Source: Leptospiraceae bacterium
GTDB lineage: Bacteria; Spirochaetota; Leptospiria; Leptospirales; Leptospiraceae
NCBI GenBank assembly: GCA_024233835.1
Contig: JACKPC010000001.1
Coordinates: 1,349,442-1,413,441 of the forward strand
Reading direction: 5' to 3'
Length of the DNA stretch: 64,000 nucleotides
Below, piece by piece: positions 28,025 to 53,803 of the stretch. The notes under the pieces are model-generated. The model saw nothing but the letters and a program-made list of their open reading frames with translations. It made no database searches and was not told the DNA's origin. Every line of letters starts with the position of its first letter. Position 1 is the stretch's first letter. Position numbers and translations under genes: made by a program.

Positions 28025-28220
28025 TATCTTACTCCAAATTTTAATTAGAACAAGTTTCATTGTTCTGCTACTTAGATTATCATACCGGTATGTAAAGGAT
28101 AGTAGAAAGGAATCAGGAAAGAGCAAATTCTTACTGAATTGATAATTTAGCGAAAAAGTTCGATTTTTTTTATAATTTATAATGCAGTTCGACAGGAACT
28201 ATTTATCTACGGAGAAAAAG

Positions 28221-31081: not shown

Positions 31082-33631
31082 TTAGTAGTTTCTTTTCACT
31101 TTGATTTCAGTATCGCTTACACTGACTGCATTAATCGGAGGATCTGTATTCAGGCGGATTTTCAAGCGATTGTCGCCTATCTTTAACCAACTTCTGGAGA
31201 TAGTGATGCTTATAATGCTTCCCCCTGAATATGTTCCGGAGGTGATGCCGTTTCCCGTAGTGTTATCATAGACAGTATACCAGCCCGGGTTTGTAAGACC
31301 CGCTCCATTTGTTTTGCTTATCGTAACAACAAGGTTTCCACTTGCATTGATTACCGAAACAGCTTTGAAAACGTTGCTATCATAAGGCCAGGTTGTCATA
31401 CTTCCGTAGCTTGTAGAGCCTGAGATAATCTCCAAAGCAGACTGTTGCACGCAGGAGTTTCCTGATTGGATGTATCCGCTATTGCAGCCTATCACCGTGC
31501 AGGTGCCCCAATAACTTCCTTGCCAATATTGTTTCCCGGCTCCGTTTGAGATCGAGCAGCTCTTCTCATTCAGAATGCAGGAATCATTTTCCTTGTGGTA
31601 ATTGTAGTAGCAACTTGTGGGAGAACAAACCGAAGACCAGCTTCCCCAGTACCTATCATTACCACAGGTTCTTGTTTGTGAACCACTCCCATTTGCTATC
31701 GAACAGGATTGGCTTTCCTGCTGACCCGGAGTGCAGATCCCATCCTGAGTGCAGACTCCATTTTCAGGGTGGTAACCGCTATTGCAGTTGGTGATACAGG
31801 ATGAGAAATTACCCCATTGCCCATTTGAGGCACAGGTTCTTGATTTCGTGGAAGTACCATTTAAGAGGTAGCCACAACTCTGGGTATCTACCTGCCCGGG
31901 TGAGCAGGCTGCGTCCTGAATGCAAACTCCATTTTCAGGGTGGTAACCACTGTTGCAGTTGGTGATACAGGTTGAGAAATTACCCCATTGCCCATTTGAG
32001 GCACAGGTTCTTGACTTTGTGGAAGTACCATTTAAGAGGTAGCCACAACTCTGGGTATCTACCTGCCCGGGTGAGCAGGCTGCGTCCAAAATGCAGATAT
32101 CATTTTCAAGGTGGTAGCCGGTGTTGCAATTTGGTGCACAGGGAGTGAGTATCCAAATTCCGCTTGTATTGCAGTTCTGGGTTTTTATCATCATGCCATT
32201 CGAAATTGGCTCTTCACAGATAAGAGTTTTCGATTCTCCCGGCTTACAGGGTCCGGGAGGTGTCGTTCCATCACCTGTATCTATGGGTTCTACCGTCAGG
32301 TTGAATAGAGATGAGTTAAAAATGCCGGTTTCTCTATCTCTGAGGTAGAGTTTCCAGTCATTGGCGGGATTAAGATTATTAGGAACATCAAAACTTGCTT
32401 TTCCATTGTTCGAAAGATCTACTTCGTGCCTATAAAAATTTTTATTAGGAACATCACCCTTCTCTGAATCTCTCTTCAGGCTAATTATTACGGAATTAAT
32501 GTTTCCTATGGTATTATAGCTAAGGTTGATTTTTGCCCCTAACTTTACCGAAAGAGTTGTAGTTTCAATTCCGTAAAAGGAGCGGTAGCTTCCGTTTCGG
32601 CTAATAAGACCAATTTTGTCGGGGTCGATGTAGTATTTTTCTATAGAAGCTTTGTCTGCATAGCCCCAGGCCTCATAGTTAAGTGTTGTCTGGATTTTGA
32701 AGTGAAGATGAACACCATACTTGAAAGATATTCGGCTACCTGTTGAACCCATTCTACCGAGAACATCTTGATGACTTACGTTAACACCTACCTTGATTCT
32801 CGGATTAAGCTCAGAGAGGTGCCAGTAGACAAAATAAAGATTTTTCTTTTTCTCTTCGCTGTAGCTTTCCACTACTACAAGGTTACCGAGACCATTATTG
32901 CAACCGGTTTGCGCCCCTTCTTTACAGGAGGAATAGGTTTTGACCACCTTCCCATTGGAAGAAGAGAAGACTTCAGGGTAGACATTTGAATTTACTCGGA
33001 AAGAGTCTCTACCATCGTGGTAGGTTTTGTTTCCCCTGTAATCGTTTAGAAAACCGTTTTCGTTACCGTCATAGTCAGTAGATTTATACTCACCCTCCCG
33101 AAGAGGCTGGTAGAACTCGTCTATCGCTTTGTTGCCGTCATCGAAGACAACCTGAAAACCGCTTTGACTAAGAAGGTTCCTTTCCAGACTTTCCATCTTA
33201 CCATTTTCATCGAGCTTGAACCTTAAAAGACCGAGGTCATATCCGTCTTTTTTCACAAGGTAGATGTTTTCGCCGGTCATGGCTTTCAAGTTTATTTTTT
33301 TGGTATTGCTGCTATTGGCAAGTGTGTTTGGAAGAACTCTTTTTGGGTTTACCGGGTTCACCGTTTGTAATTCCGGAGTAATTATTTGGTTATTTATGTA
33401 GAAGCTTGCTGTTTTAGTGAAAGTTTGTTCTCCCTTTGGAGGTGGAGGTTCGGGATTCGTACCGGGTCCATCCGGAGTATTTGTACCTGTAGCTTTTCCC
33501 GTATCTGAAGTTACTTTTGCGAAGAGTAATTCGAAGAAACCATCCTCTTTTTCATCAGCACAATGGCTGTTGAAAACAATAAGAAGAAGCATTGCTGCTG
33601 TGGTGAGGGTCTTTGTTATTTGACGTTTCAT
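31082..33631 (-). CDS. Secreted M23-family (LytM-like) peptidase with C-terminal tandem Cys-rich modules.
   Basis: Signal peptide. M23 block: VYWHLSELNPRIKVGVNVSHQDVLGRMGSTGSRISFKYGVHLHFKIQ (HxH motif). Then ~57-aa Cys-rich modules follow (CNSGYHPENGVC...CSPGQVDTQSC...TCASNGQWGNFSTC), two of them identical. Confidence 0.75.
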   Translation of the reverse strand: MKRQITKTLTTAAMLLLIVFNSHCADEKEDGFFELLFAKVTSDTGKATGTNTPDGPGTNPEPPPPKGEQTFTKTASFYINNQIITPELQTVNPVNPKRVLPNTLANSSNTKKINLKAMTGENIYLVKKDGYDLGLLRFKLDENGKMESLERNLLSQSGFQVVFDDGNKAIDEFYQPLREGEYKSTDYDGNENGFLNDYRGNKTYHDGRDSFRVNSNVYPEVFSSSNGKVVKTYSSCKEGAQTGCNNGLGNLVVVESYSEEKKKNLYFVYWHLSELNPRIKVGVNVSHQDVLGRMGSTGSRISFKYGVHLHFKIQTTLNYEAWGYADKASIEKYYIDPDKIGLISRNGSYRSFYGIETTTLSVKLGAKINLSYNTIGNINSVIISLKRDSEKGDVPNKNFYRHEVDLSNNGKASFDVPNNLNPANDWKLYLRDRETGIFNSSLFNLTVEPIDTGDGTTPPGPCKPGESKTLICEEPISNGMMIKTQNCNTSGIWILTPCAPNCNTGYHLENDICILDAACSPGQVDTQSCGYLLNGTSTKSRTCASNGQWGNFSTCITNCNSGYHPENGVCIQDAACSPGQVDTQSCGYLLNGTSTKSRTCASNGQWGNFSSCITNCNSGYHPENGVCTQDGICTPGQQESQSCSIANGSGSQTRTCGNDRYWGSWSSVCSPTSCYYNYHKENDSCILNEKSCSISNGAGKQYWQGSYWGTCTVIGCNSGYIQSGNSCVQQSALEIISGSTSYGSMTTWPYDSNVFKAVSVINASGNLVVTISKTNGAGLTNPGWYTVYDNTTGNGITSGTYSGGSIISITISRSWLKIGDNRLKIRLNTDPPINAVSVSDTEIKVKRNY
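31742..32083. repeat. 171-bp near-perfect tandem duplication (2 units plus a degenerate third) encoding Cys-rich modules.
   Basis: Read directly in the sequence (cctga(g/a)tgca(g/a)actccattttcagggtggtaacc... recurs at a 171-bp period). Confidence 0.8.
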
Positions 33632-33769: not shown

Positions 33770-34786
33770 TCAGAATGGATTTGAGTAACTTCTTTCTAAG
33801 ATTTCCCGGGTTTCAGATGAAAGTCCTGATAGAAAACTTTTTACATTCCCTTTTTTATTTATAAGGCAGTTTCTCAGGACTTCTATGCATTCAAGAGAAT
33901 TGCTGGAATTAAGAAAGACAATGTCTTTTTTTTCCGTAAAAAGCTTTAAGATTTCATTGTATCTCTTTTCATTTCTTTCTACCCGAAAGTAACGATTGGT
34001 TTCCGTACAAATGATGTGGTCATGATTCACAAGCCTTGTTATTGGAAAGCCGTAAAAGAAGTTATCGGGTTGATTGGAATGGCTGCTATCTAAAAAATAA
34101 AGTTCTCTTTTATTCCCCGTTTTGAAATAATCCATCATTCTCTTCAAAATCCGAATTTTGGTGTTTTCTGAGTAAAACCTTTCGGCAAACCTTCCGAAAC
34201 CGAATTGCAACAGACTTACTACCGTATAGAATTCCCAGTTGCGTAAATCAGGGTTTTTTCTTAAAACTTCCTGTCTTTCCTCGTCTATACTGTCTTTTTT
34301 GTTATTCTTGACCTTTACTTCCCGGTGCAAGCCTGAAGGAAAAGAATTGCTGATGTAGACTCTACCTTCCACTTCTTCCATTTTATGAAAGAATTTGTTT
34401 ATATCCATACCATTACTCAGTTCTTCTTTGATATAGCGTACTTCACCGGGTATAAAGGGAGTAAACCAATCATTATTGATTGTATTTCTCAACACGATTT
34501 CAGACATGTGCGGATTTTGTAGAGCGGGTTTGACCTGGAGTTCATCGTTTGAGAGAAGCCAGTTCAGATCAATTGTGTAGATTTCTTTTAGCTTGACAAG
34601 AAAGTCGAATGTAGGTAAAGCCGCATGTTCCACGTTCAATATTTGGCTTACCTGGGCTGTAGTTTTTCCCATCTGTTCGGCAAATTGTTTTTGACTTATG
34701 TTTTTATTGTCCAGTATGGTTCTCAATTTCTGAACAAAACTTTTTTTTAAAACCGACTTTACAGATTTTTTTCCATCCTTTTCCAT
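33770..34786 (-). CDS. HTH (XRE-like) domain protein with a C-terminal domain paralogous to 28221-29909.
   Basis: N-terminal helix-turn-helix segment (ISQKQFAEQMGKTTAQVSQILN). C-terminal FPSGLHR / FYGFPITRL / ERNEKRYN blocks. Confidence 0.55.
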   Translation of the reverse strand: MEKDGKKSVKSVLKKSFVQKLRTILDNKNISQKQFAEQMGKTTAQVSQILNVEHAALPTFDFLVKLKEIYTIDLNWLLSNDELQVKPALQNPHMSEIVLRNTINNDWFTPFIPGEVRYIKEELSNGMDINKFFHKMEEVEGRVYISNSFPSGLHREVKVKNNKKDSIDEERQEVLRKNPDLRNWEFYTVVSLLQFGFGRFAERFYSENTKIRILKRMMDYFKTGNKRELYFLDSSHSNQPDNFFYGFPITRLVNHDHIICTETNRYFRVERNEKRYNEILKLFTEKKDIVFLNSSNSLECIEVLRNCLINKKGNVKSFLSGLSSETREILERSYSNPF

Positions 34787-34842: not shown

Positions 34843-37800
34843 ATGCCGGTGAGTCATTCAAAAGAAATTATCATTCCGAATTGTGATTATACAGAGGAAG
34901 AATATGAGAAAATTAAAAATCGTGTTAAACTCGATAGGGACACCTACAGGGACTTTCGGGATAACTTGCAATTTTTTTGGGAGAGTTATGAACTTGCCAG
35001 AGGTTCGGCGGTTTTAGAAAACCGTGTACGTTTCTTTGGAGAAGGTCTGACAACGGCTCTTGTTTTTCGTTGTGAAGCCCTGATTGAAGGCACAGCCGAG
35101 TCTCATGTCAGGGTGATGAAATATGACATGGCAGAGAACATTGAAAAGGAAATTGAGAATTTTAAGAATACCGTTCATAAAGGAGAAGAAATTTATCCCG
35201 GTCTCGAAGTCATCATAAAGCTTCCCCGTAAAAAAGCGATTCTTCCCATGAAATCAGCAAACGATTCTTCAGGGGCGGATAGTTCCTACAGTGTGATTGA
35301 GTTTCTCTGGCAAAAATATAAGAGTGAGAGAAACCATCTCTTTCACAGGGGAAGCATGATTGCTGAAGCCATTGAACAGGTATACGAAGGTCTATTTCAC
35401 ACATTTTACCGGATTGAAACCGGGCTTCATTTTGTTGAAGGTAAAAGTCTGTATGAGTATTACTATCCCAAGGTTAATCTAAAAAAGTTAAACCCGAAGG
35501 CGGACGAACACAGGTCCTATTTTGAAGCCAGCTGTAAATATTTAGGGGAAGATGTTAGCATCTATGAAACCTTTTTAAACCCGGAGGTTTCCTACCGGCC
35601 TCTTGAAACAGGACATGCCATCCACGGGGACTTAAATCCTTTTAATATTTTACTCGCTGTGAAAAATAAGAAGACAGAAATTCGGCCCATGCTCATTGAC
35701 TTTTTTGAAATTAAGTTTGTTTCAAAGGATGATTGGTGTCCCCTTTTGCATGACTTTGCCCGTCTCGAATCCCAGATTGTTTTTTATTACTTTCATTTTC
35801 TTTACGAAGAAGAGACAGACAAAACGGAAGCGTCCTTTCGACTGCTGTTAAGCGAGTTTGAAAAGCTGATGGTCTTGCTGAATTCAGGAGAATACCGGGC
35901 AATTCAGTCTTCTAAGCCGGAAAATCTAAACTCTGATGCTCTCAAGTATATTTTTAGAATCTTATATTCCTTGCGAAAGTTTGTTATAGAAAATTGTCCT
36001 GATGAAAATATAGAAGAATACTATGCAAACTATATCTATGCTGCCATGTCCTTCTCGTTTTTCTTTTTAAAGTTTACGAGTGAGAACGGCATGGAAATCA
36101 AAAGACATTTTGCTTTAAAGGCTGCTTTTGTACACAGGCGTACTTTAGAAAGCTTAAGTAATTTGAAATTTTTTACTCTCTTCCGGATGAGAAAAGTGGA
36201 CAGACTTTCTATAGACGATTCGCTTTTGAGTTTTTTGGAAGAAGAAAAAGATACTTACCTTCCACCTGAAGATGAGATTGAAGCTATATTAGATTTTTTG
36301 AAGAAAAAAGAAAAACAGTTTTTAATTCTTGAAGGTGTGCCGGGGGTCGGAAAAACGTCTCTTTCCAAATATATGTCACTTTTCTTAAACGCAGAAATCC
36401 CGGAAAAGAGTTTAGAAGTCGATACGTTTTGTCTGCCTTTCTTCTTTGGAAGTGATAAAAATCTCTGTAATGAAAGAGAAATTTACCCTGTATTTTCGAG
36501 GAAGCTTTTAGAGGCCTTTCCTGTCAGGTTGCCTGAGGAACTGGAAAACTCTTTAGACGAATCGAAAAAGTTTTTCAAGATACTGAATCTTGTTTACCAC
36601 GAACACCTGAAAGATAAGAGTCAGCTTATCTTCTGGTTTGATGCTATCAATGAATATGAGGGACTCGAACTCAAGAATGTGATTTCGAATATTTACCCTT
36701 CAGATGTCAGGCTGGTCGTGAGTACCCGTCCCGGTAACGAGAAGCTAAGAAAATTTTTAAAATCCACTAAGCATGAGTATATGGAGATAAAGCATTTCTC
36801 GGAAACCGAACTTATTCATTTCTTTGAAAGAAACGAAATGAACCTGGAGGAAGATGTATACAGGCTTATCTTTCAAAGAACAGGGGGCTTACAGGTTGCG
36901 GTAAAAGTAATCTATGAAATGCTTCTCGAAGAAGAGGGAAAACCCGCCAAGTTACATAAGGAAACTTTGAAGGAGGATTTACAAAACTTGCATGTAAGCG
37001 AGGACGACTACAGCGGTCTCTATGAGTTCTATTTGAAAATTAATGAGAATATCAGGGCTAAGTCTGGGGAAAAAGATATAGCGAAAAGGCTCCTTTTAAC
37101 ATTAAGTCTCGCCCATTCTCCCTTGAGTATTGAACAGCTTTATAGGATTAATCTTCATTCTCTCAAAGCAAAGCTTTCGGAATTTGAAGAGGATGCTCTC
37201 GACGAGTTAAGATCCGAGCTTCAAAAAATATCCGAAATTGTATTGAAGGATGAGAGTGGAAGATATCGTTTGTTTCATCCGACTTTTGAAGAGTTCCTGA
37301 GAGAGAAGTATAAGCAGAGCCTTGAAAAGGTTATCGAAGGCTTCTGTGCGTATTTACTATCCTATGCGGATTATCCCGAAGGGACTAAAGACTTCCTGTA
37401 TTGTATACAATTTGGCGGTGTTCATCTCTACGAATGGGCTGAAAAATACGGAGAAAGATACAAAGAGGCCTTGCATACCTTATTTCTTTCGGTTCTTAAC
37501 CTGGAGGAAGAACAGCATAAAATATGGAAGAAAATGCTCGGCGAATCCGGGTATTTTATTGTTTTACACCGGAACTGGAAAGAGGAATTCATATTTAAGA
37601 ATCTTCTGAGTTCTTTAAAGACCCGGGGTTTATCTTCTCAGGCTAAATATCAATTTGCAGAATTATTGGGAAGTATGGGAAAGAGAGTTGAGGACTTTGG
37701 TTTTAAATCAAGCTGGTCTTTGTTCTATTTTGAAGACTCTCTGAATATTAGGAAAGAATTAATAGCCTTAGAACCCGATAGAACCGATTTCAAAAGAGAC

Positions 37801-38100
37801 TATGCGAGTTCGCTCTTCTTTTTAAGCTTCCTTCTATACGAAGCCGGTGAGAATGAAAAAGGGACAATCAAGACAGAAGAAGCCCTTATGATAGCTGAAT
37901 CGCTGTTGCAAAAGGAACCGGAACACATCAAGTCTGCTATACTTCTCTTCGGTTTTTATGTCCGGCTTTTTTCTCTCTCAAAAGAAAATGAGTTTTTAAG
38001 TAAAGCCTTACAAACCCTACAGCCTTTTTATGAAGCAGAAAGGCTTCCTCAGGAATTTTTAGAGCTTTATGAAACCTTGAAAAAAGAACTGGAAACTTGA
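34843..38100 (+). CDS. Kinase-like / NACHT (STAND) NTPase / helical-repeat protein, paralog A (1085 aa).
   Basis: The N-terminus has a Gly-rich segment (FGEGLTTALVFRCE) plus Lys (VMKYD), a catalytic-loop-like HGDLNPFNILL and an IDFFE (DFG-like) motif, as in the APH/choline-kinase/ePK fold. The middle has Walker A (GVPGVGKTS), Walker B (LIFWFDAINE) and a NACHT-like VVSTRPGN. The C-terminus is helical TPR-like. Confidence 0.75.
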   Translation: MPVSHSKEIIIPNCDYTEEEYEKIKNRVKLDRDTYRDFRDNLQFFWESYELARGSAVLENRVRFFGEGLTTALVFRCEALIEGTAESHVRVMKYDMAENIEKEIENFKNTVHKGEEIYPGLEVIIKLPRKKAILPMKSANDSSGADSSYSVIEFLWQKYKSERNHLFHRGSMIAEAIEQVYEGLFHTFYRIETGLHFVEGKSLYEYYYPKVNLKKLNPKADEHRSYFEASCKYLGEDVSIYETFLNPEVSYRPLETGHAIHGDLNPFNILLAVKNKKTEIRPMLIDFFEIKFVSKDDWCPLLHDFARLESQIVFYYFHFLYEEETDKTEASFRLLLSEFEKLMVLLNSGEYRAIQSSKPENLNSDALKYIFRILYSLRKFVIENCPDENIEEYYANYIYAAMSFSFFFLKFTSENGMEIKRHFALKAAFVHRRTLESLSNLKFFTLFRMRKVDRLSIDDSLLSFLEEEKDTYLPPEDEIEAILDFLKKKEKQFLILEGVPGVGKTSLSKYMSLFLNAEIPEKSLEVDTFCLPFFFGSDKNLCNEREIYPVFSRKLLEAFPVRLPEELENSLDESKKFFKILNLVYHEHLKDKSQLIFWFDAINEYEGLELKNVISNIYPSDVRLVVSTRPGNEKLRKFLKSTKHEYMEIKHFSETELIHFFERNEMNLEEDVYRLIFQRTGGLQVAVKVIYEMLLEEEGKPAKLHKETLKEDLQNLHVSEDDYSGLYEFYLKINENIRAKSGEKDIAKRLLLTLSLAHSPLSIEQLYRINLHSLKAKLSEFEEDALDELRSELQKISEIVLKDESGRYRLFHPTFEEFLREKYKQSLEKVIEGFCAYLLSYADYPEGTKDFLYCIQFGGVHLYEWAEKYGERYKEALHTLFLSVLNLEEEQHKIWKKMLGESGYFIVLHRNWKEEFIFKNLLSSLKTRGLSSQAKYQFAELLGSMGKRVEDFGFKSSWSLFYFEDSLNIRKELIALEPDRTDFKRDYASSLFFLSFLLYEAGENEKGTIKTEEALMIAESLLQKEPEHIKSAILLFGFYVRLFSLSKENEFLSKALQTLQPFYEAERLPQEFLELYETLKKELET

Positions 38101-38111
38101 AGAGATGCAAG

Positions 38112-39032
38112 TTATTGTCCGAGTCTAAAAAAGTTTCTGTCGGAACACAGGTAAATAAACTCAAAGAGTTCCAATAAATCCAAATTTTCCTGAGTGATTT
38201 CTCTTTCCGGGTAGAGAATAATATCCACCCCGGTTTCCTGTAAATCTTTTAGTACCTGCAAGGGGCTATTCTTAAAATAAGGATGGGCTGGTTCCCAATT
38301 CACACAGACAAGGCCTCCCTGATTCTGGATGTCCTGCACCCATTCTTCTTTGTTTAGAGGAATATCTGAATTTTTTAATATACTACTATATCTTAGTGCT
38401 GGCTCAGGGTTACTCAGCATAAAACTTTTGGAATGTAAAAGTTCTTTTTGTAAAATCATATCCTCTTGTTTCTCTGTATGCCTGCTATTGTACACTTCCC
38501 AGGCTTTTTTTACCGGAAGCCCGATAGTAATCGTTTTATCGGAATAGCTTAGCTTACTTTCCGGTAAATCCTCTGTGTTCAAAATCGAATATAGGTCTTT
38601 TTTGGGTACAAGGATATTCTCACCTGATTTCGTAAAAAACTCTTCCGCCTCTTTTTCCGAAGCCAAAAGACGTTCTGGAAAATCTTTCTCCCGAAAAAGT
38701 AAGTTTACCAGGAAAAACTTGAAGATGTATAGGGTCTGATATACTTTTCCATCCCGTATGGTCTCTGCCTCCCAGAGAATACGGTTTGAATGCAGGGTTT
38801 TTAGTTTGAAATCAATCAAATAACGCAGGCCCGGAAGTTCTTCCTGAACTTCTCGAATACAGGTATTTTTAATGGAATAATCATCGAGTTCTCTTTCATA
38901 GTGTCCGCTGATGATGTTATAGCGTTCGTATCTCCGGTTGTATTGCAGCAATAATTTGTCTCCTACAAACAAAAGAACCCCGGCACCAATGCTGATTCGA
39001 TTTATCATGTTTTCCTCAATTTGTCGTTTCAT
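38112..39032 (-). CDS. Hypothetical protein with a divergent Nudix-like N-terminal domain.
   Basis: GAGVLLFVGDKLLLQYNRR...SGHYERELDDYSIKNTCIREVQEELPG resembles the Nudix box (REx2EE). It is not an exact match. Confidence 0.4.
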   Translation of the reverse strand: MKRQIEENMINRISIGAGVLLFVGDKLLLQYNRRYERYNIISGHYERELDDYSIKNTCIREVQEELPGLRYLIDFKLKTLHSNRILWEAETIRDGKVYQTLYIFKFFLVNLLFREKDFPERLLASEKEAEEFFTKSGENILVPKKDLYSILNTEDLPESKLSYSDKTITIGLPVKKAWEVYNSRHTEKQEDMILQKELLHSKSFMLSNPEPALRYSSILKNSDIPLNKEEWVQDIQNQGGLVCVNWEPAHPYFKNSPLQVLKDLQETGVDIILYPEREITQENLDLLELFEFIYLCSDRNFFRLGQ

Positions 39033-39176
39033 GTTATTTCATTAAAAGGGGCTGTCTCAAAAGTCGTTTCGATACACCATCGGATATCGAACTGGAGTTG
39101 CCGATCCCTGAGTAGGTCAAAGACCGTATCGAAGAGCGGCAACCTATAGAAGACAGTCCCGTTTTCACTTACCTTT

Positions 39177-41003
39177 TTAAAACCTTCCTATTACTTTGAA
39201 AGGATATTTTGAGAACGTTTTTGAACCTTCACAAACGGAATTTGCGTCGGCTATGGTTTTTAACCTGTAGCACTTGGTTTGTCCGTCTGTTCCGGGGCGT
39301 AAGTAAGCATAGGGAAAAGAGCCGGCTCCGTACGAGTTAGTTGAAACATAGCTTCCTACTAATTCCGGATCGCTTGTGCTGTAGTAGCAGGAGGTTTCAT
39401 AGACCTTAATGACTCCCGGACATTTCACCCCGGTACCATCGAGCTTTTTCAATTCTACCAGGACATGAAGCAGGTAATCATTTTCTGCTGTATAGTATCT
39501 TCCGGCGATAGTATTTTCTACTGACTCATAAGCATATACAGTCGAGTCTGATGTAACGCTGATGTCCTGACATTTATTTGATAGTGTATCATGAAATAAG
39601 CCGGACTGGCAGGAAGAGATTACACATTTTGTACCGCTTATCCAGCTCATACCGTCGGAAGAACAGGTATCGGTTCTATAGGCGGAGCTGGCGTATTTCG
39701 CAGAACAGCTTACCTGTTTTGTAGAGCCGGGAGTGCAAATCTTCTTTAACTGACAGCTTCCATTTACAATTTCACGTCCGCTATCACAGCTAAGTACCTG
39801 ACAGGATGTCTGGCTGCTATAGGCACTGCCGGTGGAGTTACAGGTTTTTGTGTAGCTTCCGGTTCCGTAGGGAACATAACAGGAAAAACTTGTAGTAGAG
39901 TTCGGCGTGCAGACCCAGGGGTAGCAAAACCCTCCTGAAAGGTAATGTCCTGTATTACATGAATCTAATATACAATTTCCCCAGCTTCCATTAGACCAGC
40001 TCATGGTTCCTGTTCCGTTCGAGCCCGAACAGGCTTTTGTGTTCGGCAGACACTGGTTATTTTCTTCATGTGTGTTTAAGGGACAGACTAACTCGTTTTT
40101 AACACAGGTATTATTTGACTCGTGGCTATCCAGGGGACAGGTTATCGTAAACGAGCAGTTTGCTACATTAGAAATCTGACCGCTTGCATTTTTAACTGTG
40201 TAGGTAAACGATGTGGTGCCGGCAAAATTAGCCTGTGCGGTAAAGATTCCATTTGCCTGGTTATAGCTTCCCTTGAGTCCGGCTGTATTGACAGAAGCAA
40301 TACTCAATCCGGAAGATGGTGTATCATTTGCTAATATATTCGTTGATACAGAGCTGTTATAGGCTATTGTGTAGGTATCATTATTTGCCACGGGTGGATT
40401 CGTTCCGGTTCCGGTTCCGGTTCCGGTTCCGGTTCCTGTTCCTGTTCCTGTTCCTGTTCCTGTTCCTGTTCCTGTTCCAGTTCCTGTGCCGGTTCCTGTG
40501 CCTGTTCCACCTTTTACCGGAGTTTCATCATACGATTCTCCTCCGACCGGTGGAATATAAGACGGAATTTTGATTGAAATAAAACTCAGGTTCTTACTCC
40601 GGTCTTCTGCAACAAGAGTAATGTAGTCTCCCGGCTTTAGCTTATCTAAAGGAACTTTTCCAAACATTTTCCCGGAGAGAATCGTATTCTTTTCTATAAG
40701 CGTCCTGAGTTCCTGTGTCGATTTGGGTTCATCGGAAGTTTTGAGTATTATCTCCCGAATGTCTTCTTTCTTTGTAAGATCATCCGTGACTTCCGGCACA
40801 GTAAGAATTCCGCTCGTGGCTGAATCTGCCTTGTAAGTCAAAACTCCAGCAAATTTAGGTGCTACTGTATCCGGCTTTGCACAGGGTCCCGTTTGAGACA
40901 GAACGCAAGAATGAATAAATGTATTTGCCAAATCTTCTTTCTTCTCTCCCGGACAGTTCAAAAAGAAGAAAGGAACTATCAATAAAACGATTGACTTTTT
41001 CAT
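39177..41003 (-). CDS. Lipoprotein with (GT)19 dipeptide-repeat linker and Cys-rich C-terminal modules.
   Basis: Lipobox (LLIVPFFFLNCPG). Its N-domain is paralogous to the 24281-26335 lipoprotein. Its C-terminal Cys-rich modules are homologous to those of the M23 peptidase (CNTGHYLSGGFC..CTPGSTKQVSC..). Confidence 0.7.
   Translation of the reverse strand: MKKSIVLLIVPFFFLNCPGEKKEDLANTFIHSCVLSQTGPCAKPDTVAPKFAGVLTYKADSATSGILTVPEVTDDLTKKEDIREIILKTSDEPKSTQELRTLIEKNTILSGKMFGKVPLDKLKPGDYITLVAEDRSKNLSFISIKIPSYIPPVGGESYDETPVKGGTGTGTGTGTGTGTGTGTGTGTGTGTGTGTGTGTGTNPPVANNDTYTIAYNSSVSTNILANDTPSSGLSIASVNTAGLKGSYNQANGIFTAQANFAGTTSFTYTVKNASGQISNVANCSFTITCPLDSHESNNTCVKNELVCPLNTHEENNQCLPNTKACSGSNGTGTMSWSNGSWGNCILDSCNTGHYLSGGFCYPWVCTPNSTTSFSCYVPYGTGSYTKTCNSTGSAYSSQTSCQVLSCDSGREIVNGSCQLKKICTPGSTKQVSCSAKYASSAYRTDTCSSDGMSWISGTKCVISSCQSGLFHDTLSNKCQDISVTSDSTVYAYESVENTIAGRYYTAENDYLLHVLVELKKLDGTGVKCPGVIKVYETSCYYSTSDPELVGSYVSTNSYGAGSFPYAYLRPGTDGQTKCYRLKTIADANSVCEGSKTFSKYPFKVIGRF
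40399..40512. repeat. Hexanucleotide tandem repeat (ggttcc/tgttcc-type, 19 units) encoding (GT)19.
   Basis: Read directly in the sequence. Confidence 0.9.
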
Positions 41004-41368
41004 GGTCTTTTCTCCAAATTTATTTGTTGCTTTAAACAGAACCGTTCAAAAACCTTTCCCTGACTTTCGGTTTAAACCGGCAGTCAGTAAGAGTAAATGT
41101 TATCCTTTTTAAAACAACCTTGAGCTTATTCTACACCTTCCCTGGTTTATTCGCAATTCCTTATAGTAGAGCAAAAAGGAAATCTGTGAGAGATTGATAG
41201 TTTATCGATTTTCCCTTGCTTTTTAGATAATTTATCCCGAACTCTATACATTTCCTTATAGGAAAATTTTTTTAGTGGATGTTTATTTAAGTAAAATTGA
41301 AAATTATCATAGTAATTTTCAGTAGACAAAGACTCGAATATAACTTTTACTGATGACAGGAGCCGGTA

Positions 41369-44300
41369 ATGAATTCAGAAATCATTCTTGACTATAGCCG
41401 TTTTTCCATCGAGGAACTGGCAGAAAAAGACTACACTACAGCCCAAAGCTTCATGAAAGAAAAAGTAGAGAAGAATCTTTTTCGAGAGATTTCCAAAGAA
41501 GCTTATAAAGAATTTGTAGAGAATCTAAAGGAATTCTGGCTGGAAGATCTGCGAGAATTTAAACCGGAGAGAGGTTTTACACTTACGATTCGCTTTATGT
41601 CAGCCGGCCTGACCGCTGCTTCTGTATTTCGCTGCGAGGTCGATATCTGCGGGGACATAGCCACTCCCAAAGTGGTTGTTTGTAAATACGACGAGAAGGA
41701 AAATATAGAAATTGAGTCTCAAAACTTTAGAATGGTTATAAAATCAGGAGAGTCGGTCTTTCCGGACATCCAAAAAGCCCAGGCTTTTGAAAATGGGATG
41801 GCTCTTTTAACCATGCGTTCTGCTATCGAGAGTAAGAGTGCCATCACGGTTTTCAGTGCTATCAAGTTTATCCTCGATAAATACGGGCAGAACGAAAGAA
41901 TGCTGGAATTTTATGCCAAAGTATTCGCGAATCATACCGGGATTGTCTACCGGGATATGCGGGATAAACTGTATCATACGCCGAATGCTCACTGGACTTC
42001 TCAGGACTCATTTCGCGGGCTTTATGCAGGTAAGACGGACTTAAAGGTTTTAGACGATAAAACAAAAGCCAGTCCGAATGGAACTTTCTCCGAAAGACTG
42101 AAAAAAGTCTGTTTAGATACCGGTCTGGAATATGAGAGTTTTCTAAATTTCTTAAGTACTTTTCCCGATTGCAGGGCTTTACTCTCCGGTGTGGCTATCC
42201 ATAAGGATTTGAATCCTAACAATATCTTACTGGCTATCGGGGAAGATAGCGATAGGAATGAAATCATCAGTCCTATGCTGATTGACTTTTTTGAAATGCA
42301 GTATAAAGAGAATGAAAGGGGAGAAAACTGGCTTCCCCTGCTTTTTGATTTTAGCCGCTTTGAAGCCCAGATGTTTTTGTATTATTTCAGCTATTTAAGT
42401 AAAAGCTCAAATTCTAAAGAAGTTTTCTTTCAATCCTTTAAAAGGCTGATAGATGCCCTGAACAGGGGCAGGCTCGTAAAAATCAATTCAGCGGATCCGG
42501 CTGTTATAAGTAATGAAGCTCTTAGCTATATCTTTACTATCTTTTTCAAGCTTCGAGGCTATGTCTTTCGTGATTTAGCCGAACTGGGAATTGAGAAAAA
42601 GCTTATATACCAGAACTACCTATCTTCTCTGTCTTCGTTTTACTTTTCCTTTTTGAAAATGGATAAGGAAGAAGCTTTTCAAGATAAGTGGAATTTCTCC
42701 CTTCTGGCTGCGGATACCTGTAGAAAAAACATTATCGAGCTAACCGATAAACTGGACTATGACTCGATTTATCGGGAATCCAAATCGGACAGGCTGCATA
42801 TCGGTGATTCCATGATGGCTCTTTTAGAAAGGAAACGTTATCACCATATAGCTCTTTCTGATAACTTACAAAAAGTTAAGGATTTCTTACACTCGGATAA
42901 GCAAATCCTTTATATCGAATCATCACCGGGAATGGGGAAATCCTCCTTTCTGGCTTATATCTGTGATGCTCTGAACGATAATATCCCGGAAAGTGAATTA
43001 CCGGGAAACGTGTTTTGCATCCCGGTATTTTTTGATGATAAAGACAAGGCAAAAGTAAAAGAAAGAGAAACCAACAGGGCACTGAAGACAAAAGAAGAAC
43101 AAAACATCGAGCTTAATTTTCAGGACATAGCCGATTATTTTGTCCAAATCCTCTGTGCTGCGTTTCATAAAGTGGATAAAGCACCGGAAGAAAAAAGCAC
43201 CGACCGTTTTATCCGGCTCTGCCACGAAATTTATCCTGAGCTGGAACAAAAAAAGCAACAGGTCGTTTTCTTAGTCGATGCTCTCGACAGGAATTTTATA
43301 GAACTCGAACACTATGTCCTGACCAACCGTCTGCCGGGGCGGTTTCAGTATATTTTATCGAGTAGACCCCAAAATCCGCGCTGGGAAAGCTTTTATAATG
43401 AGCAGAGGCAGTTCTTTCGCTCAGAAACCTATAAGCTGGCAGAGTTTTCCAAAGATGATATTCGGGCTCTCTTTCAGGAATGGAAGGTGAGTCCGGAACT
43501 GACAGAAGAGGAAGCCGCATTACTCCATGAAAAAACCGGTGGTTACCCCATTTATGTAGAATTTATCCGCAGGCTTTTAGTAGCTGAAAAAGGCCGGGCA
43601 GCCAAGATGAGGCGGGAGGAACTGAAAGAGAGGCTGCATAGCTTTTCCAAAGAAGGTTTTGAAAGGGAATTATTTGATTATTATGATGAGCTGGTAAAAT
43701 CCAAAAATAAAATTGTAAAACAGGTTCTGTTTTGTCTGGTGCTGGCAAAGGACTATCTTTCGGCTGCACATCTGGCCCGAATTTTATACGAGGAATTGGA
43801 AAGAGAGTATCATACGGATATAGAGGCCGACCTGATAGATGTTTTAAAGGACGACATTCTTCCTGTTATCCGGGAAGTCCTCGAATACGATGAAAATCAA
43901 AACTTTCGAATCTTTCACCGAAGCTATGAAAGATACCTGGAAGAAAAGTATCAGGGAAAAGGAGGTCTTCGAGATTTCCGGGCAACTTTTTTTCGGTATC
44001 TTAAGCAGTACAGAGACTATGCAGAAAACGAGGAGGAGAGAGTTCACTTTCTCTACTGTAAGAATTACCTCGGTTTACACCTCTACGAATGGGCACAATC
44101 CGAGAAAAGTTATCAAGAGAAATTCGATACTATTTTTGCCGAAATTTTTTCTATGGAAGAGGAAGAATACAGACTCTGGAAAAAGCCCCTGAAAGCCATG
44201 GTTTATTGGATGATGGAGAATCAGCCTTATAATGAAACTGAATTTATGCTGACTTTTTTAAAAAGTCAGATTCCGGCTATCTTTAGTTATCGCTACTTCC

Positions 44301-46204
44301 TGTTTTTGACTGAGATAATCGAGAAAAAGAAAAACAAGGGCTATGATACAACCTGGAATGCTTCTCTTCATTTCTTAAATTTGGAATTGATACAGGCTTT
44401 ATCCAAGTCCGAACCCAATAACACTCAGTATAAAAGAGACATTTCGGTTTCTTATGACAGAATTGCTGATGTGTATGTATCGAGGGGAGAGACCGATAAA
44501 GCTCTGAAACATTTCACCGAATCTCTACTGATTGCAGAACAATTATCAAACTCCGAACCCAATAACAGTCTGTATAAAAGAGACATTTCGGTTTCTTATA
44601 ACAGACTTGCTGATGTGTATGTATCGAGGGGAGAGACCGATAAAGCTCTGAAACATTTCACCGAATCTCTACTGATTGCAGAACAATTATCCAAGTCCGA
44701 ACCCAATAACACTCAGTACAAAAGAGACATTTCGGTTTCTTATGACAGACTTGCTGATGTGTATGTATCGAGGGGAGAGACCGATAAAGCTCTGAAACAT
44801 TTCACCGAATCTCTACTGATTGCAGAACAATTATCCAAGTCCGAACCCAATAACACTCAGTATAAAAGAGACATTTCGATTTATTTAAATAAGATTGCTG
44901 ATGTGTATGTATCGAGGGGAGAGACCGATAAAGCTCTGGAGTATTACACCGAATCTCTACTGATTGCAGAACAATTATCAAACTCGGAACCCAATAACAC
45001 TCAGTATAAAAGAGACATTTCGATTTATTTAAATAAGATTGCTGATGTGTATGTATCGAGGGGAGAGACCGATAAAGCTCTGGAGTATTACACCGAATCT
45101 CTACTGATTGCAGAACAATTATCCAAGTCCGAACCCAATAACAGTCTGTATAAAAGAGACATTTCGGTTTCCTTTAATAACATTGCAGATATATATGTAT
45201 CGAGGGGAGAGACCGATAAAGCTCTGGAGTATTACACCGAATCTCTACAGATTGCAGAACAATTATCAAACTCGGAGCCCAATAACACTCAGTATAAAAG
45301 AGACATTTCGGTTTCTTATGACAGAATTGCTGATGTGTATGTATCGAGGGGAGAGACCGATAAAGCTCTGGAGTATTACACCGAATCTCTACTGATTGCA
45401 GAACAATTATCAAACTCCGAACCCAATAACACTCAGTATAAAAGAGACATTGTTCATAGTTTAATTAAGAAAGGTAATATCTTGATCTTCAAAGGAGATG
45501 TAGGAAAAGCAAAAAGTAGTTATGAAAAAGCTTTATCGCTTATAAATGTGGATGTTATAGATGTATCTATATTTTTTACAAAACTCAAGGCGGAAGTGCT
45601 ACAGGGTCTTGTTACGGTCTCTATGATGGATTCTGAAGAACAGGATTCTGATAAAATTTTCAGTTATTCTCTGGAAGCCCTTTCCTTATGGGAGAAACTA
45701 AAGGAAGAATATGGCACAATCGATATACAAGTGCTAAATGGATTAGGAAAGTCTAATTTTCTCTTAGCTGTATTATCTGGTAATTTAGAAACGGGTGAAC
45801 AGAGAAAATATATACATAAGGCTATTAAAAATCTTTTGGAAGTTCATAAAATTCAAGCAGATAATCCGGATGTTTTGATGATGCTTTCGAATGCTTATTC
45901 TATGCTTGGCAATGATTACTTAGAAAAAGAAGAAACAGAAAAAGCCAGAGAAGTAATTGAAAAATCTATAAATTATAGCCGAGCACTGGTTGAAAAATTT
46001 CCCGAAAATTACAACTATAAGCAAAGTATAATTTTTCCTTTAATAAGTATTGCTCAACTGGAAGATGATGAATCAAAAGCAATAGAATATTTAAAAGAAG
46101 CTTATGAAACGATTATAGCTTTGGAAAAAAAAGGCTATCATATACCGGGGATAGAAGAAATGAAGAATTGGATTCAATCTGTTATAGAAGGGAATGAAGA
46201 ATGA
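41369..46204 (+). CDS. Kinase-like / NACHT (STAND) NTPase / tandem helical-repeat protein, paralog B (1611 aa).
   Basis: Collinear with paralog A: GLTAASVFRCE, VCKYD, AIHKDLNPNNILL, IDFFEMQY. Walker A (SSPGMGKSSF), Walker B (VVFLVDALDRNF) and ILSSRPQNP. The C-terminus has seven-plus 48-aa near-identical repeats and then further helical repeats. Confidence 0.8.
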   Translation: MNSEIILDYSRFSIEELAEKDYTTAQSFMKEKVEKNLFREISKEAYKEFVENLKEFWLEDLREFKPERGFTLTIRFMSAGLTAASVFRCEVDICGDIATPKVVVCKYDEKENIEIESQNFRMVIKSGESVFPDIQKAQAFENGMALLTMRSAIESKSAITVFSAIKFILDKYGQNERMLEFYAKVFANHTGIVYRDMRDKLYHTPNAHWTSQDSFRGLYAGKTDLKVLDDKTKASPNGTFSERLKKVCLDTGLEYESFLNFLSTFPDCRALLSGVAIHKDLNPNNILLAIGEDSDRNEIISPMLIDFFEMQYKENERGENWLPLLFDFSRFEAQMFLYYFSYLSKSSNSKEVFFQSFKRLIDALNRGRLVKINSADPAVISNEALSYIFTIFFKLRGYVFRDLAELGIEKKLIYQNYLSSLSSFYFSFLKMDKEEAFQDKWNFSLLAADTCRKNIIELTDKLDYDSIYRESKSDRLHIGDSMMALLERKRYHHIALSDNLQKVKDFLHSDKQILYIESSPGMGKSSFLAYICDALNDNIPESELPGNVFCIPVFFDDKDKAKVKERETNRALKTKEEQNIELNFQDIADYFVQILCAAFHKVDKAPEEKSTDRFIRLCHEIYPELEQKKQQVVFLVDALDRNFIELEHYVLTNRLPGRFQYILSSRPQNPRWESFYNEQRQFFRSETYKLAEFSKDDIRALFQEWKVSPELTEEEAALLHEKTGGYPIYVEFIRRLLVAEKGRAAKMRREELKERLHSFSKEGFERELFDYYDELVKSKNKIVKQVLFCLVLAKDYLSAAHLARILYEELEREYHTDIEADLIDVLKDDILPVIREVLEYDENQNFRIFHRSYERYLEEKYQGKGGLRDFRATFFRYLKQYRDYAENEEERVHFLYCKNYLGLHLYEWAQSEKSYQEKFDTIFAEIFSMEEEEYRLWKKPLKAMVYWMMENQPYNETEFMLTFLKSQIPAIFSYRYFLFLTEIIEKKKNKGYDTTWNASLHFLNLELIQALSKSEPNNTQYKRDISVSYDRIADVYVSRGETDKALKHFTESLLIAEQLSNSEPNNSLYKRDISVSYNRLADVYVSRGETDKALKHFTESLLIAEQLSKSEPNNTQYKRDISVSYDRLADVYVSRGETDKALKHFTESLLIAEQLSKSEPNNTQYKRDISIYLNKIADVYVSRGETDKALEYYTESLLIAEQLSNSEPNNTQYKRDISIYLNKIADVYVSRGETDKALEYYTESLLIAEQLSKSEPNNSLYKRDISVSFNNIADIYVSRGETDKALEYYTESLQIAEQLSNSEPNNTQYKRDISVSYDRIADVYVSRGETDKALEYYTESLLIAEQLSNSEPNNTQYKRDIVHSLIKKGNILIFKGDVGKAKSSYEKALSLINVDVIDVSIFFTKLKAEVLQGLVTVSMMDSEEQDSDKIFSYSLEALSLWEKLKEEYGTIDIQVLNGLGKSNFLLAVLSGNLETGEQRKYIHKAIKNLLEVHKIQADNPDVLMMLSNAYSMLGNDYLEKEETEKAREVIEKSINYSRALVEKFPENYNYKQSIIFPLISIAQLEDDESKAIEYLKEAYETIIALEKKGYHIPGIEEMKNWIQSVIEGNEE
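44395..45450. repeat. 144-bp tandem repeat array (7 full units plus a partial one) inside the paralog B gene.
   Basis: Units begin with tccgaacccaataac every 144 bp. Differences are confined to a few codon positions (TQ/SL, VS/IY, YDR/YNR/LNK/FNN, KHF/EYY, K/N). Confidence 0.9.
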
Positions 46205-46413: not shown

Positions 46414-48219
46414 ATGAGTTCTATTATGATAAAGTTTCCCTACGGTATCATGGATTTTTCTGACATAATTACAGAAGCTTATTTCTATCAGGACAGGACG
46501 GCCTTTATAGAGAAATGTGAAAATACAGCCAAGACTCTCTTCTGTGTTCGACCAAGGCGTATGGGAAAGACTCTCTGGCTCGATACCCTGGCCAGTTATT
46601 ACGACATTCTCAAAAAAGACCGTTTTGATGACTTGTTCGGAAGTCTTTATATCGGGAAAAACCCAACACCCAGGCGAAACTCTTATCTTATCCTGAGGCT
46701 CGATTTTTCGAAGATTCAACCGGGCAAAACAGTAGAAGAAATCGAGAGTAGTTTTAATGATTATATAACAAATATTACTCGTGAGTTTTTGATAAATTAT
46801 AAAGATTTCCTGATTGATTATTCAATTGATTTCAGTTCCAAAAAGGCAAATCATTCTCTGGATCAACTTTTAAGCTCTGTAAAACTATCCGGTCACAAGT
46901 TATATGTTCTAATAGATGAGTATGATAATTTTACCAACGAACTCATCAGCACCAACAGGTCGAAAGACTATTCGGATCTGGTTACAGGGGATGGCTTTCT
47001 GAAATCCTTCTTCAAAGTTCTGAAAGCCGGTAACATAGGTGCTATTGATAGAACCTTTGTGACAGGAGTTACGCCCATCACTCTAACTGACCTTTCGAGT
47101 GCCTATAATATTGCTACCCACATCACTTTTAAAGAAGAGTTTAATTCCTTATTGGGTTTTACGGAAGAGGAAGTAGAAGCCATGCTCGAAAGGGTCTTAG
47201 AAGAAATTGATCTGATGGCTAAAAAAGAAGAAATTCTTTCTCAGATGAGATACTATTATGATGGCTATATTTTTCATGAGGAAAGTGAGGAGCATATTTA
47301 TAACCCGACCCTGACCTTGTTTTATCTTCAGGCCCTATTAAAAGAACGTAAAATTCCTAAAAAGTTTTTTGATAAGAACCTCGATATGGACATCAATAAG
47401 TTGGAGCACATTACAAAGCTAAGTTCCGTGCATGACAAAGTATTTGCTCTTTTAGAAAACGAGGAAAAGGTAAGCATTTCACATATAGTAGAAGAATTTA
47501 AACTGAAAGAACTCCTTACTATGGATGAACAGGCGGATAACTTTCTCTGGTCGTATTTGTTTTATCATGGCATCTTAACCTTTGGTGGAATAGATAGAAC
47601 AAGGGTCCAATTAAAAATACCGAATACAGTATCCAGACATTTCTATTATGATAGAATTCGTTATAGCATTTTGCCGAAGAAATTAGATATATCTGAAATG
47701 CAGGAGAAGTTTTTTCTGGATTTAAATCTTTCTGAATTACAATCCTTTTTAGAAAAAACGGTACTGCCTTATTTATCTAACCGTGACTACATTCAGGCCA
47801 ATGAACTGTCTATGAAAATAATGTTTCTCTCTCTCATGATGCGGGATGACCTGTATATCATAGACAGTGAAAAAGAAATCTTACGTGGCTATTGCGACCT
47901 TTTCTACCTCGGTCGCGGAGATACTCGAAAGAAATATGGTTTAAAAGATATATTAATCGAGTTCAAATTTATTAAACTCTCAGAATTGGAAGTCACACAG
48001 AAAGAAATAAAAGAACTTTCTTATGAAGAACTGGAAAACCTTCCACTAATTCAGACAAAACTGAAAGAAGCCAGAGAACAACTATCCATTTACAAAGAAC
48101 GTTTGGAGAAGAGATTTCTTAACCATAATCCCTTTTTCAAAGATATGAGTGATTTTAAAATTCACCCCTTAAGTATTGTGTTTATTGGTTTTGACAGGGT
48201 AGTAGTAAAACCCGCTTGA
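46414..48219 (+). CDS. AAA-ATPase-like / PD-(D/E)XK protein, paralog copy 2.
   Basis: Same family signatures as copy 1. Mosaic with module variants B, X and Q (see findings). Confidence 0.8.
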   Translation: MSSIMIKFPYGIMDFSDIITEAYFYQDRTAFIEKCENTAKTLFCVRPRRMGKTLWLDTLASYYDILKKDRFDDLFGSLYIGKNPTPRRNSYLILRLDFSKIQPGKTVEEIESSFNDYITNITREFLINYKDFLIDYSIDFSSKKANHSLDQLLSSVKLSGHKLYVLIDEYDNFTNELISTNRSKDYSDLVTGDGFLKSFFKVLKAGNIGAIDRTFVTGVTPITLTDLSSAYNIATHITFKEEFNSLLGFTEEEVEAMLERVLEEIDLMAKKEEILSQMRYYYDGYIFHEESEEHIYNPTLTLFYLQALLKERKIPKKFFDKNLDMDINKLEHITKLSSVHDKVFALLENEEKVSISHIVEEFKLKELLTMDEQADNFLWSYLFYHGILTFGGIDRTRVQLKIPNTVSRHFYYDRIRYSILPKKLDISEMQEKFFLDLNLSELQSFLEKTVLPYLSNRDYIQANELSMKIMFLSLMMRDDLYIIDSEKEILRGYCDLFYLGRGDTRKKYGLKDILIEFKFIKLSELEVTQKEIKELSYEELENLPLIQTKLKEAREQLSIYKERLEKRFLNHNPFFKDMSDFKIHPLSIVFIGFDRVVVKPA

Positions 48220-48241
48220 CTTACTGAATATAAACCTTGAA

Positions 48242-50047: not shown

Positions 50048-50069
50048 CTTACTGAATATAAACCTTGAA

Positions 50070-51875: not shown

Positions 51876-51897
51876 CTTACTGAATATAAACCTTGAA

Positions 51898-53697: not shown

Positions 53698-53803
53698 AGG
53701 GAAGAGTTCGGAGAAGTGCTTATCAACTCTTGAAACCTGAAACCATCTTTTCTTTTTTTCAACACTTCCAAATCTACTTGACTCATAAAATCCAAAGGTT
53801 GAA

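Follow-up and report, generated by a model that had tools for sequence, protein, structure and literature searches.

What do two large proteins that join a kinase-like head to a NACHT-like NTPase and a tail of helical repeats do for a member of the Leptospiraceae? The question is raised by two genes, here called A and B, found in 64,000 nucleotides from a Leptospiraceae bacterium (assembly GCA_024233835.1, contig JACKPC010000001.1, positions 1,349,442 to 1,413,441), a stretch which was analyzed as a whole and is referred to as the window. The answer favored here, with a probability of about 0.5, is that A and B are ligand-triggered STAND receptors of a conflict system whose effector would be an APH-type kinase, the target of the conflict probably being a phage or another mobile element.

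Two Paralogs with a Tripartite Architecture

Paralog A (34843..38100, plus strand) has 1085 residues and comprises a kinase-like N-terminal domain, a NACHT-like STAND NTPase, and a C-terminal helical, TPR-like region, while paralog B (41369..46204, plus strand), with 1611 residues, repeats this tripartite organization with an expanded TPR array. An earlier note on this DNA had placed two open reading frames (ORFs) at exactly these coordinates and had quoted a series of kinase and STAND motifs, all of which are found in A and B. Public gene callers start A (P0002) at a GTG located two codons further downstream. The proposal that both proteins are paralogs is borne out by BLASTP (31% identity over 1057 columns, E = 5e-126), and hidden Markov models (HMMs) of the family, run over the whole 64-kb window, match A and B only. 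The genes, which lie 3.3 kb apart with two minus-strand genes in between, look like a diverged tandem duplication. All complete close relatives hold the same succession of kinase-like, STAND, and helical-repeat modules, and this order of an N-terminal enzyme, a STAND core, and repeats is that of the Avs/bNACHT layout, as had been pointed out.

It had also been claimed that A and B form a sensor/effector pair. In its strict form, this would make them an obligate sensor/helper NLR pair, where one protein detects the ligand and the other executes the response. The short distance between the paralogs, together with the tandem paralogs of two metagenomic loci (L002/L003), speaks for such a division of labor, which is nonetheless very improbable: the kinase, P-loop, and repeat modules are complete and intact in both proteins, the loci retrieved for L005, L007, L008, L009, and L014 contain a single family gene each, and A and B are neither head-to-head nor co-transcribed, because the two intervening genes are on the opposite strand.

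The Kinase-Like N-Terminal Domain

The N-terminal domain is assigned to the protein-kinase-like fold, in the APH/choline-kinase branch, a call that had already been made from the motifs and that is considered correct because Pfam matches, invariant alignment columns, and a structural model agree on it. In A, this domain covers residues 1 to about 460 (34843..36222) and bears a Gly-rich loop (GEGLTTALVFRCE, residues 66–78; 35038–35076), the β3 Lys (in VRVMKYD, residues 89–95; 35107–35127), the αC Glu (in 35140–35163), the catalytic loop HGDLNPFN (as part of HGDLNPFNILL, residues 261–271; 35623–35655), the Mg-binding Asp (in LIDFFE, residues 284–289; 35692–35709), and a DFARLE motif (35743–35769). 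The corresponding domain of B (41369..42811) presents the Gly-rich loop SAGLTAASVFRCE (residues 78–90; 41600–41638), the Lys in VVVCKYD (residues 102–108; 41672–41692), the loop HKDLNPNN (as part of HKDLNPNNILL, residues 278–288; 42200–42232), and LIDFFE (residues 304–309; 42278–42295).

Among the Pfam families, TCAD9 (PF19974) matches A with 64.9 bits when the whole protein is scored and with 68.6 bits when its N-terminal domain is taken alone (cut-off 40), the match extending over residues 240–400 and being restricted to positions 283–419 of the 429 in the profile, which correspond to its C-lobe part. The score of B against TCAD9 (27–31.7 bits) stays under the cut-off. A and B belong to a very small subfamily that the TCAD9 profile covers only in part. 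Marginal matches to RIO1, Kdo/WaaP, ULK2, and IRE1 are all centered on the HxDLxPxN catalytic loop, those to ULK2 and IRE1 being all that a sequence search of the PDB with the N-terminal domain returned.

Seven close and three distant relatives, 19–35% identical to A, were aligned with both paralogs. Few columns are invariant in this alignment, and the canonical kinase set is among them: G68 and T70 of the Gly-rich loop, the β3 Lys K93, the αC Glu E103, the catalytic-loop residues H261, D263, N265, and N268, and D286, the Mg-binding Asp of DFx. Residues D304 and R307 of the DFARLE motif, located after DFx, are invariant too. We take this motif to correspond to the D-L-A helix cap that APH and choline kinases typically possess. 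K93, E103, H261, D263, N268, and D286 are also unchanged in more distant TCAD9-like proteins, and the catalytic set (Gly-rich loop, β3 Lys, αC Glu, HxDxxxxN, and DFx) is complete in both A and B. Since every catalytic residue is invariant in the family, the sequences argue for an active phosphotransferase, with a predicted kinase activity on a substrate whose class can only be proposed.

The AlphaFold2 model of residues 1–470 of A, built on the family alignment, is a confident one (pLDDT 83.8, pTM 0.86), and the catalytic residues fall on the expected elements, namely the β1-loop-β2, β3, αC, and the catalytic loop. Foldseek agrees on the kinase fold, but its TM scores are low (0.3–0.47), which sets the domain well apart from every solved structure. 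The structures that match it best are those of metabolic kinases acting on sugars and small molecules.

The NACHT-Like STAND Core

The central region had been described as a STAND/NACHT NTPase, and both Pfam matches above cut-off and conserved motifs uphold this description. In A, the core and its winged helix (36334..37299) hold the Walker A motif GVPGVGKTS (residues 498–506; 36334–36360), the Walker B motif LIFWFDAINE (residues 595–604; 36625–36654), the STRP sensor-1 (VVSTRP, residues 625–630; 36715–36732), GGLQ (36880–36894), and FHPTFEEFL (37270–37299). The core of B (42920..43939) shows the equivalent motifs SSPGMGKSS (residues 518–526; 42920–42946), VVFLVDALDR (residues 632–641; 43262–43291), SSRP (in ILSSRP, residues 662–667; 43352–43369), GGYP (43535–43549), and FHRSYERYL (43910–43939).

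Three Pfam models match the core of A over their cut-offs, NACHT (32.5 bits; cut-off 26.7), NPHP3_N (28.3; 24.8), and NB-ARC (26.2; 23.5). For B, NPHP3_N is over the cut-off with 31.6 bits, while NACHT remains under it with 20.4. When seven cores of the family are considered, AAA_16 matches all of them, NPHP3_N five, and NACHT four. Conserved through the family are GxPGxGK(T/S), hhhhD(A/G)h(D/N), S(T/S)RP, GG(L/Y)(Q/P), and the winged-helix motif FHxxxxE(F/Y)L, which resemble the DGhDE, TSRP, and FxHxSFQEFL motifs of NACHT proteins. A sequence search of the PDB with the STAND profile gave generic P-loop matches only (RFC, Clp), with no close solved STAND protein among them. On the Pfam matches and motifs, the core is classified no more finely than as a NACHT-like STAND NTPase.

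The Repeat Tail

The C-terminal helical repeats, proposed in the earlier note as the sensor, form a TPR array of a sensor-like type, where a ligand would be bound. In B, the array (44399..45451, plus strand) was delimited by Tandem Repeats Finder as a 144-nt (48-residue) unit present 7.3 times with 92% matches, so that the near-identical sevenfold repeat that had been reported is confirmed as seven complete units. Pfam recognizes this tail as TPR_12 (152 bits) and TPR_2 (127 bits), among others. The C-terminus of A, which shows no Pfam TPR match at E ≤ 0.01, is 33–35% identical to the repeats of B. A per-codon analysis of the seven units found 19 variable codons, 14 of which alter the amino acid, and the differences between units cluster mainly at repeat positions 3, 9–10, 17–22, and 37–39.

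A copy of B in the databases (P0001) holds six units fewer. This difference was considered as a biological change in copy number and rejected; it is probably an assembly collapse, because the contig that encodes this copy measures 6.2 kb and belongs to a fragmented assembly.

A Rare and Patchy Family

An exhaustive HMM search with a profile of the N-terminal domains of A and B against 1.84 billion representative proteins retrieved 19 matches at E ≤ 1e-3, 11 of them at E ≤ 1e-10. With so few matches, the family is not a housekeeping one, a possibility that had been raised as an argument against a defensive role. Among the genome matches listed, at least four loci belong to Leptospirales, Leptospiraceae, Spirochaetia, and Caldilineaceae metagenome-assembled genomes (MAGs), and at least three loci come from metagenomes. 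A word-indexed homology search, a method nearly blind to this family, returned nothing with the N-terminal domain of A and one protein with the family profile. The family is extremely rare and patchy.

A Conserved Neighborhood with Exchanged Modules

Three genes on the minus strand accompany A and B most closely. The first one (33770..34786; 338 residues) is divergent from A with a gap of 56 bp and encodes an Xre-type HTH protein (Pfam HTH_3, 25.3 bits) with a conserved C-terminal domain to which no fold was assigned; a PDB sequence search with this protein gave no match. It is a candidate regulator of the locus.

The second one (38112..39032; 306 residues) is convergent with A, their stop codons being 11 bp apart, and corresponds to the Nudix-like gene that had been placed between the pair. 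It holds an N-terminal Nudix-fold domain, modeled with low confidence, with the variant box GHYERELDDYSIKNTCIREVQEELPG, followed by a C-terminal alpha/beta region. Compared with the canonical GX5EX7REUXEEXGU, the G...E...RE spacing of this box is four residues longer (Pfam NUDIX, E = 0.21). The REVQEE segment (R60, E61, E64, and E65) is invariant across four homologs.

The third one, also anticipated between the paralogs, encodes a putative secreted lipoprotein of 608 residues (39177..41003) with a signal- and lipobox-like N-terminus, a Big_9 domain, and a Gly-Thr linker. It is located upstream of the Nudix-fold gene and is co-directional with it; its participation in the system is uncertain.

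The Nudix-fold protein has four homolog clusters only, and at every locus with sufficient context its homologs adjoin a gene for a repeat-bearing receptor. In L014/L015, an M23 peptidase (minus strand), an Xre-like protein of 365 residues (minus), a kinase-like-nSTAND1-WD40 receptor (plus), a protein of 369 residues (plus), and a Nudix-like protein (plus) follow each other in an order that mirrors the M23 (minus), Xre (minus), A (plus), and Nudix genes of the window. Between both sites, identity amounts to 37% for the Xre proteins and to 46% for the Nudix proteins, while the receptors share only about 23% and carry a different type of STAND domain. In L017–L019, the contig covers no more of the receptor than its C-terminal part, which consists of B-like TPRs (44–49% identity to the repeats of B) and is followed by a gene for 371 residues and then by a Nudix-like gene.

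The kinase-like head is also mounted on other bodies: nSTAND1 (322 bits) with Lcl_C in L011, WD40 in L010, and nSTAND1 (308 bits) with WD40 in L014/L015. The persistence of the kinase head and of the Xre and Nudix genes, while switch and sensor are exchanged, is what would be expected of a mobile, diversifying receptor cassette. A tyrosine-recombinase-like gene, recognized by motif alone (HPHAFRHT...GHENIQTTE.FY), lies convergent directly after the Nudix-like gene in relatives (L014 10917–11351; L018 3744–4340), which suggests that, in these relatives, the cassette borders a mobile element; in the window, no recombinase-like gene was seen in the vicinity of A or B. To our knowledge, a conserved Xre/Nudix neighborhood with swapped STAND modules has not been described before.

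Several other genes recur around the relatives. The helical protein of 369–371 residues between receptor and Nudix-like gene (L014 8847–9956; L017 2370–3485) has no Pfam match. The tandem receptor paralogs of L002/L003 are each followed, after 3 bp, by a gene for 222 residues with a sub-threshold match to Sa_NUDIX (22.4 bits, E = 1.3e-4). The window Nudix protein and the 222-residue protein of L003 were compared as possible orthologous partners and discarded, as they show no direct similarity. Neighbors in L003 (6789–8063), L005 (12294–14006), and L007 (309–3101 and 9569–12619) hold an N-terminal region resembling class III cyclases (GD and NIAARLE motifs; Guanylate_cyc, E = 0.0024–0.06), of which no homolog was found in the window. 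In L007 309–3101, the cyclase-like region is joined to a Peptidase_C14 caspase domain (residues 673–913), and this caspase domain also aligns by BLAST with L005 14043–15746. A common caspase-like nature of the shared L003, L005, and L007 neighbors was dismissed, since the region they have in common is the cyclase-like one and Pfam detects a caspase in L007 309–3101 only. Finally, in one locus, the gene directly upstream of P0006 (L007 5096–6139) has a sub-threshold match to Tpt1/KptA (23.7 bits, cut-off 26).

The recurrence of such candidate effectors (Nudix, Sa_NUDIX-like, Peptidase_C14, and cyclase-like) beside members of the family would agree with a model where the kinase-like domain is a regulatory or adaptor module, acting, for instance, through autophosphorylation, nucleotide sensing, or recruitment and activation of a partner, and the true effector acts in trans, this being the Nudix-fold protein in the window and the caspase- or cyclase-like proteins in relatives. 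Kaur et al. have indeed reported that many kinase domains of related conflict systems are catalytically inactive and have a non-enzymatic role. This model is quite unlikely for A and B, given the invariance of the whole catalytic set in the family, the fact that no partner gene is common to all family loci, and the position of the domain at the N-terminus, where Avs/bNACHT-type proteins usually carry their effector.

Proposed Mechanism and Weight of the Evidence

For A and B as kinase-bearing receptors of a conflict system, the following sequence of events can be proposed. The C-terminal TPR array would bind a ligand, which is probably a different one for each paralog, because A and B differ most in this region. 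Binding would free the NACHT-like module for NTP exchange or binding and for oligomerization, and the oligomers would juxtapose the kinase-like heads, activating them by proximity. The kinase would then phosphorylate a hydroxyl group of a small molecule, a nucleotide-derived compound, or a peptide, either poisoning the cell or the invader or producing a signal. The Nudix-fold neighbor may handle the same nucleotide-type substrate or product, whether to reset the system, to confer immunity, or to carry out a second step, and expression would be controlled by the divergent Xre-HTH gene.

The signs of a conflict system are of several kinds. They include the rarity and patchiness of the family, the tandem paralogs here and in L002/L003, the near-identical repeats of B with their clustered differences, the exchange of STAND and sensor modules at a syntenic locus beside a recombinase-like gene, and the cyclase-like, caspase-domain, and Sa_NUDIX-like neighbors of distant relatives.

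A more specific proposal, which is doubtful at present, sees in these proteins a new NLR-like immune module where the activated kinase would transfer phosphate to RNA or to a compound containing a nucleotide or ribose, yielding a toxic or signaling product, and the Nudix protein would make, destroy, or reset that compound. The cyclase-like, Sa_NUDIX-like, and weak Tpt1/KptA-like neighbors of distant members would fit such a shared nucleotide-centered theme. If true, the immune output would consist of small-molecule chemistry rather than of a nuclease, protease, or NADase activity.

A number of observations weigh against a role in conflict. As an effector, a kinase is not obviously toxic, and no experimental work on any kinase-STAND protein of this kind was found in the literature. 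PADLOC-DB v2, which includes Avs1–5, bNACHT, and other systems, has no model matching the kinase or STAND modules; it matches A nowhere and B only by a generic TPR model, so that A and B are not placed in a validated defense family. No relatives were found in the viral contigs scanned, and a tblastn search of A against plasmids gave no match. The link to the Nudix protein suffers from the low confidence of its structure model and the non-canonical spacing of its box. Furthermore, the Nudix gene of the window is co-directional with the lipoprotein gene and forms no operon with A, and, with respect to L014/L015, it is inverted and the separating 369-residue gene is absent. The syntenic loci may all belong to related spirochetes, in which case part of the linkage could reflect common descent. 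The restriction–modification (R-M) locus of the window lies at a distance of about 16 kb, and a prephenate dehydratase gene intervenes. Finally, in the STAND phylogeny that has been published, clades with and without a role in defense are intermixed.

Two of these points, the interspersed clades and the lack of a PADLOC hit, are shared by an explanation in which A and B are non-immune signaling STAND kinases that phosphorylate a metabolite or a regulatory protein upon an endogenous or environmental cue. The envelope proteins of the neighborhood (M23 peptidase and lipoproteins), the metabolic sugar and small-molecule kinases that are the closest structural matches of the head, and the cNMP-binding protein that adjoins the relative in L011 would also be in line with it. 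A comparable logic is known from the STAND regulators of the MalT/AfsR type and from the mycobacterial kinase-STAND-TPR protein PknK. However, such a role is difficult to reconcile with an extremely rare and patchy family, with the exchange of STAND and sensor beside a recombinase-like gene, with tandem diverging paralogs and near-identical repeat arrays, which are typical of immune-type receptors, and with relatives that adjoin caspase-domain and cyclase-like genes; in addition, Pfam detects no DNA-binding output domain in A or B. Ordinary signaling is, for these reasons, considered unlikely, and the reading of A and B as receptors of a conflict system is preferred.

Other Genes of the Window

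The window has a GC content of roughly 37% and contains SBBP repeats and an FLNC lipobox. Judging from these features and from the relatives of A and B, its source is probably a Leptospira-like spirochete. Promoter and terminator scans gave results that are not above shuffled expectation. The earlier note had set A and B in an island together with a Type I R-M locus and an array of AAA/PD-(D/E)XK genes. Both elements are present, the former with RhuM and AAA_13 genes, while 'island' is a loose description because of the distance to the R-M locus and of the gene in between. The R-M locus (10552–18582) is composed of hsdM (10552), hsdS (13100), and hsdR (15448–18582), with two inserted genes, one of the RhuM family (12105–13103) and an AAA_13 gene of 373 residues (14361–15482) in a PrrC-like position. 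The AAA/PD-(D/E)XK genes are six putative AAA-ATPase_like/PDDEXK_9 ORFs of 599–601 residues (21075–22874 and 46414–55603), five of which form a head-to-tail array directly downstream of B. The domain scan covered two of the six, located at 21075 and 46414, whose proteins are 88% identical and hold both the AAA-ATPase_like and PDDEXK_9 domains; the other four copies occupy 48242–55603. This array is collapsed in a fragmented public assembly (L023).

The C-terminal domain of the Xre-HTH protein is also found at the C-terminus of an ORF of 575 residues (28182–29909, plus strand), with 32% identity over 255 residues. Both share the motifs FPSGLHR, FYGxxxxRL, and RxERNxxRY, and the domain has no Pfam or PDB match. 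Within the lipoprotein gene, the (Gly-Thr)n linker is encoded by the hexanucleotide GTTCCT, repeated 17.8 times (40402–40508), which is a candidate for length variation. The Cys-rich C-terminal region of the lipoprotein shows homology to the C-terminal end of the M23 peptidase encoded at 31082–33631 and to its counterpart in L014.

Implications

Most characterized bacterial STAND receptors kill by means of nucleases, proteases, NADases, or membrane disruption, and an APH-type kinase output has been catalogued computationally only. Should A and B prove to be kinases switched on by a ligand, prokaryotic innate immunity would gain an effector chemistry that is new to it, and the receptor, with its Nudix partner and its Xre regulator, would constitute a defined system for tracing the substrate. 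The syntenic locus, where the kinase head and the flanks are kept and the STAND and sensor modules are exchanged, illustrates clearly how receptors evolve by modules in nature. If they are ordinary signaling proteins, they would simply be a well-annotated pair of rare paralogs.

Comparison with Known Systems

The combination of a kinase-fold module with a STAND core had been put forward as undescribed, a view that is overstated. TCAD9 is a catalogued Pfam family, named from the predicted vWA-MoxR-VMAP NTP-dependent conflict systems and listed in KINtaro among 71 kinase-like families. Kaur et al. noted active aminoglycoside-kinase-like effectors in such conflict systems, and Kibby et al. counted protein kinases among the N-terminal effectors of bNACHT proteins. 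In the main text of a 2026 STAND survey, kinases are not mentioned as effectors. Fusions of TCAD9-like domains to nSTAND1 and WD40 domains are found in public MAGs.

TCAD9 is the closest catalogued family, with the N-terminal domain of A scoring over its cut-off and distant relatives carrying HGDLNPxNIL, IDFGE, and WDFxRL. The domain of A and B and TCAD9 would both be APH-like kinases of the small-molecule type, placed in conflict-system architectures. However, no vWA, MoxR, or VMAP was found among the scanned ORFs of the window, the domain of A and B is fused directly to a NACHT-like STAND module with TPRs, and DFG is replaced by DF(F/A/M/Y) in their subfamily.

With Avs (AVAST) and bNACHT proteins, A and B have in common the tripartite order and the NACHT-type motifs, and TPR-like sensors dominate among defense STAND proteins. 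In place of a nuclease, protease, TIR, or SIR2 domain, the effector of A and B would be an APH-type kinase.

The members of the APH/choline-kinase/sugar-kinase group (NahK, 4ocj; MTR kinase, 2olc; APH, 3csv; LxmK, 9dk1) are 9–13% identical to the N-terminal domain, and share with it the HxDxxxxN loop, the Mg-binding Asp, and the D-x-A helix-cap motif. In A and B, unlike in these enzymes, an additional helix is present at the N-terminus of the domain, and a long helical extension at its C-terminus connects it to the STAND module.

The nSTAND1 receptors of L011 and L014/L015 possess the same N-terminal kinase-like domain (174–196 bits to the family profile), and those of L014/L015 are flanked, as in the window, by M23 peptidase, Xre-HTH, and Nudix-fold genes. 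They differ from A and B in the switch, which is nSTAND1 (308–322 bits) instead of NACHT-like, and in the sensor, which consists of WD40 or Lcl_C domains instead of TPRs.

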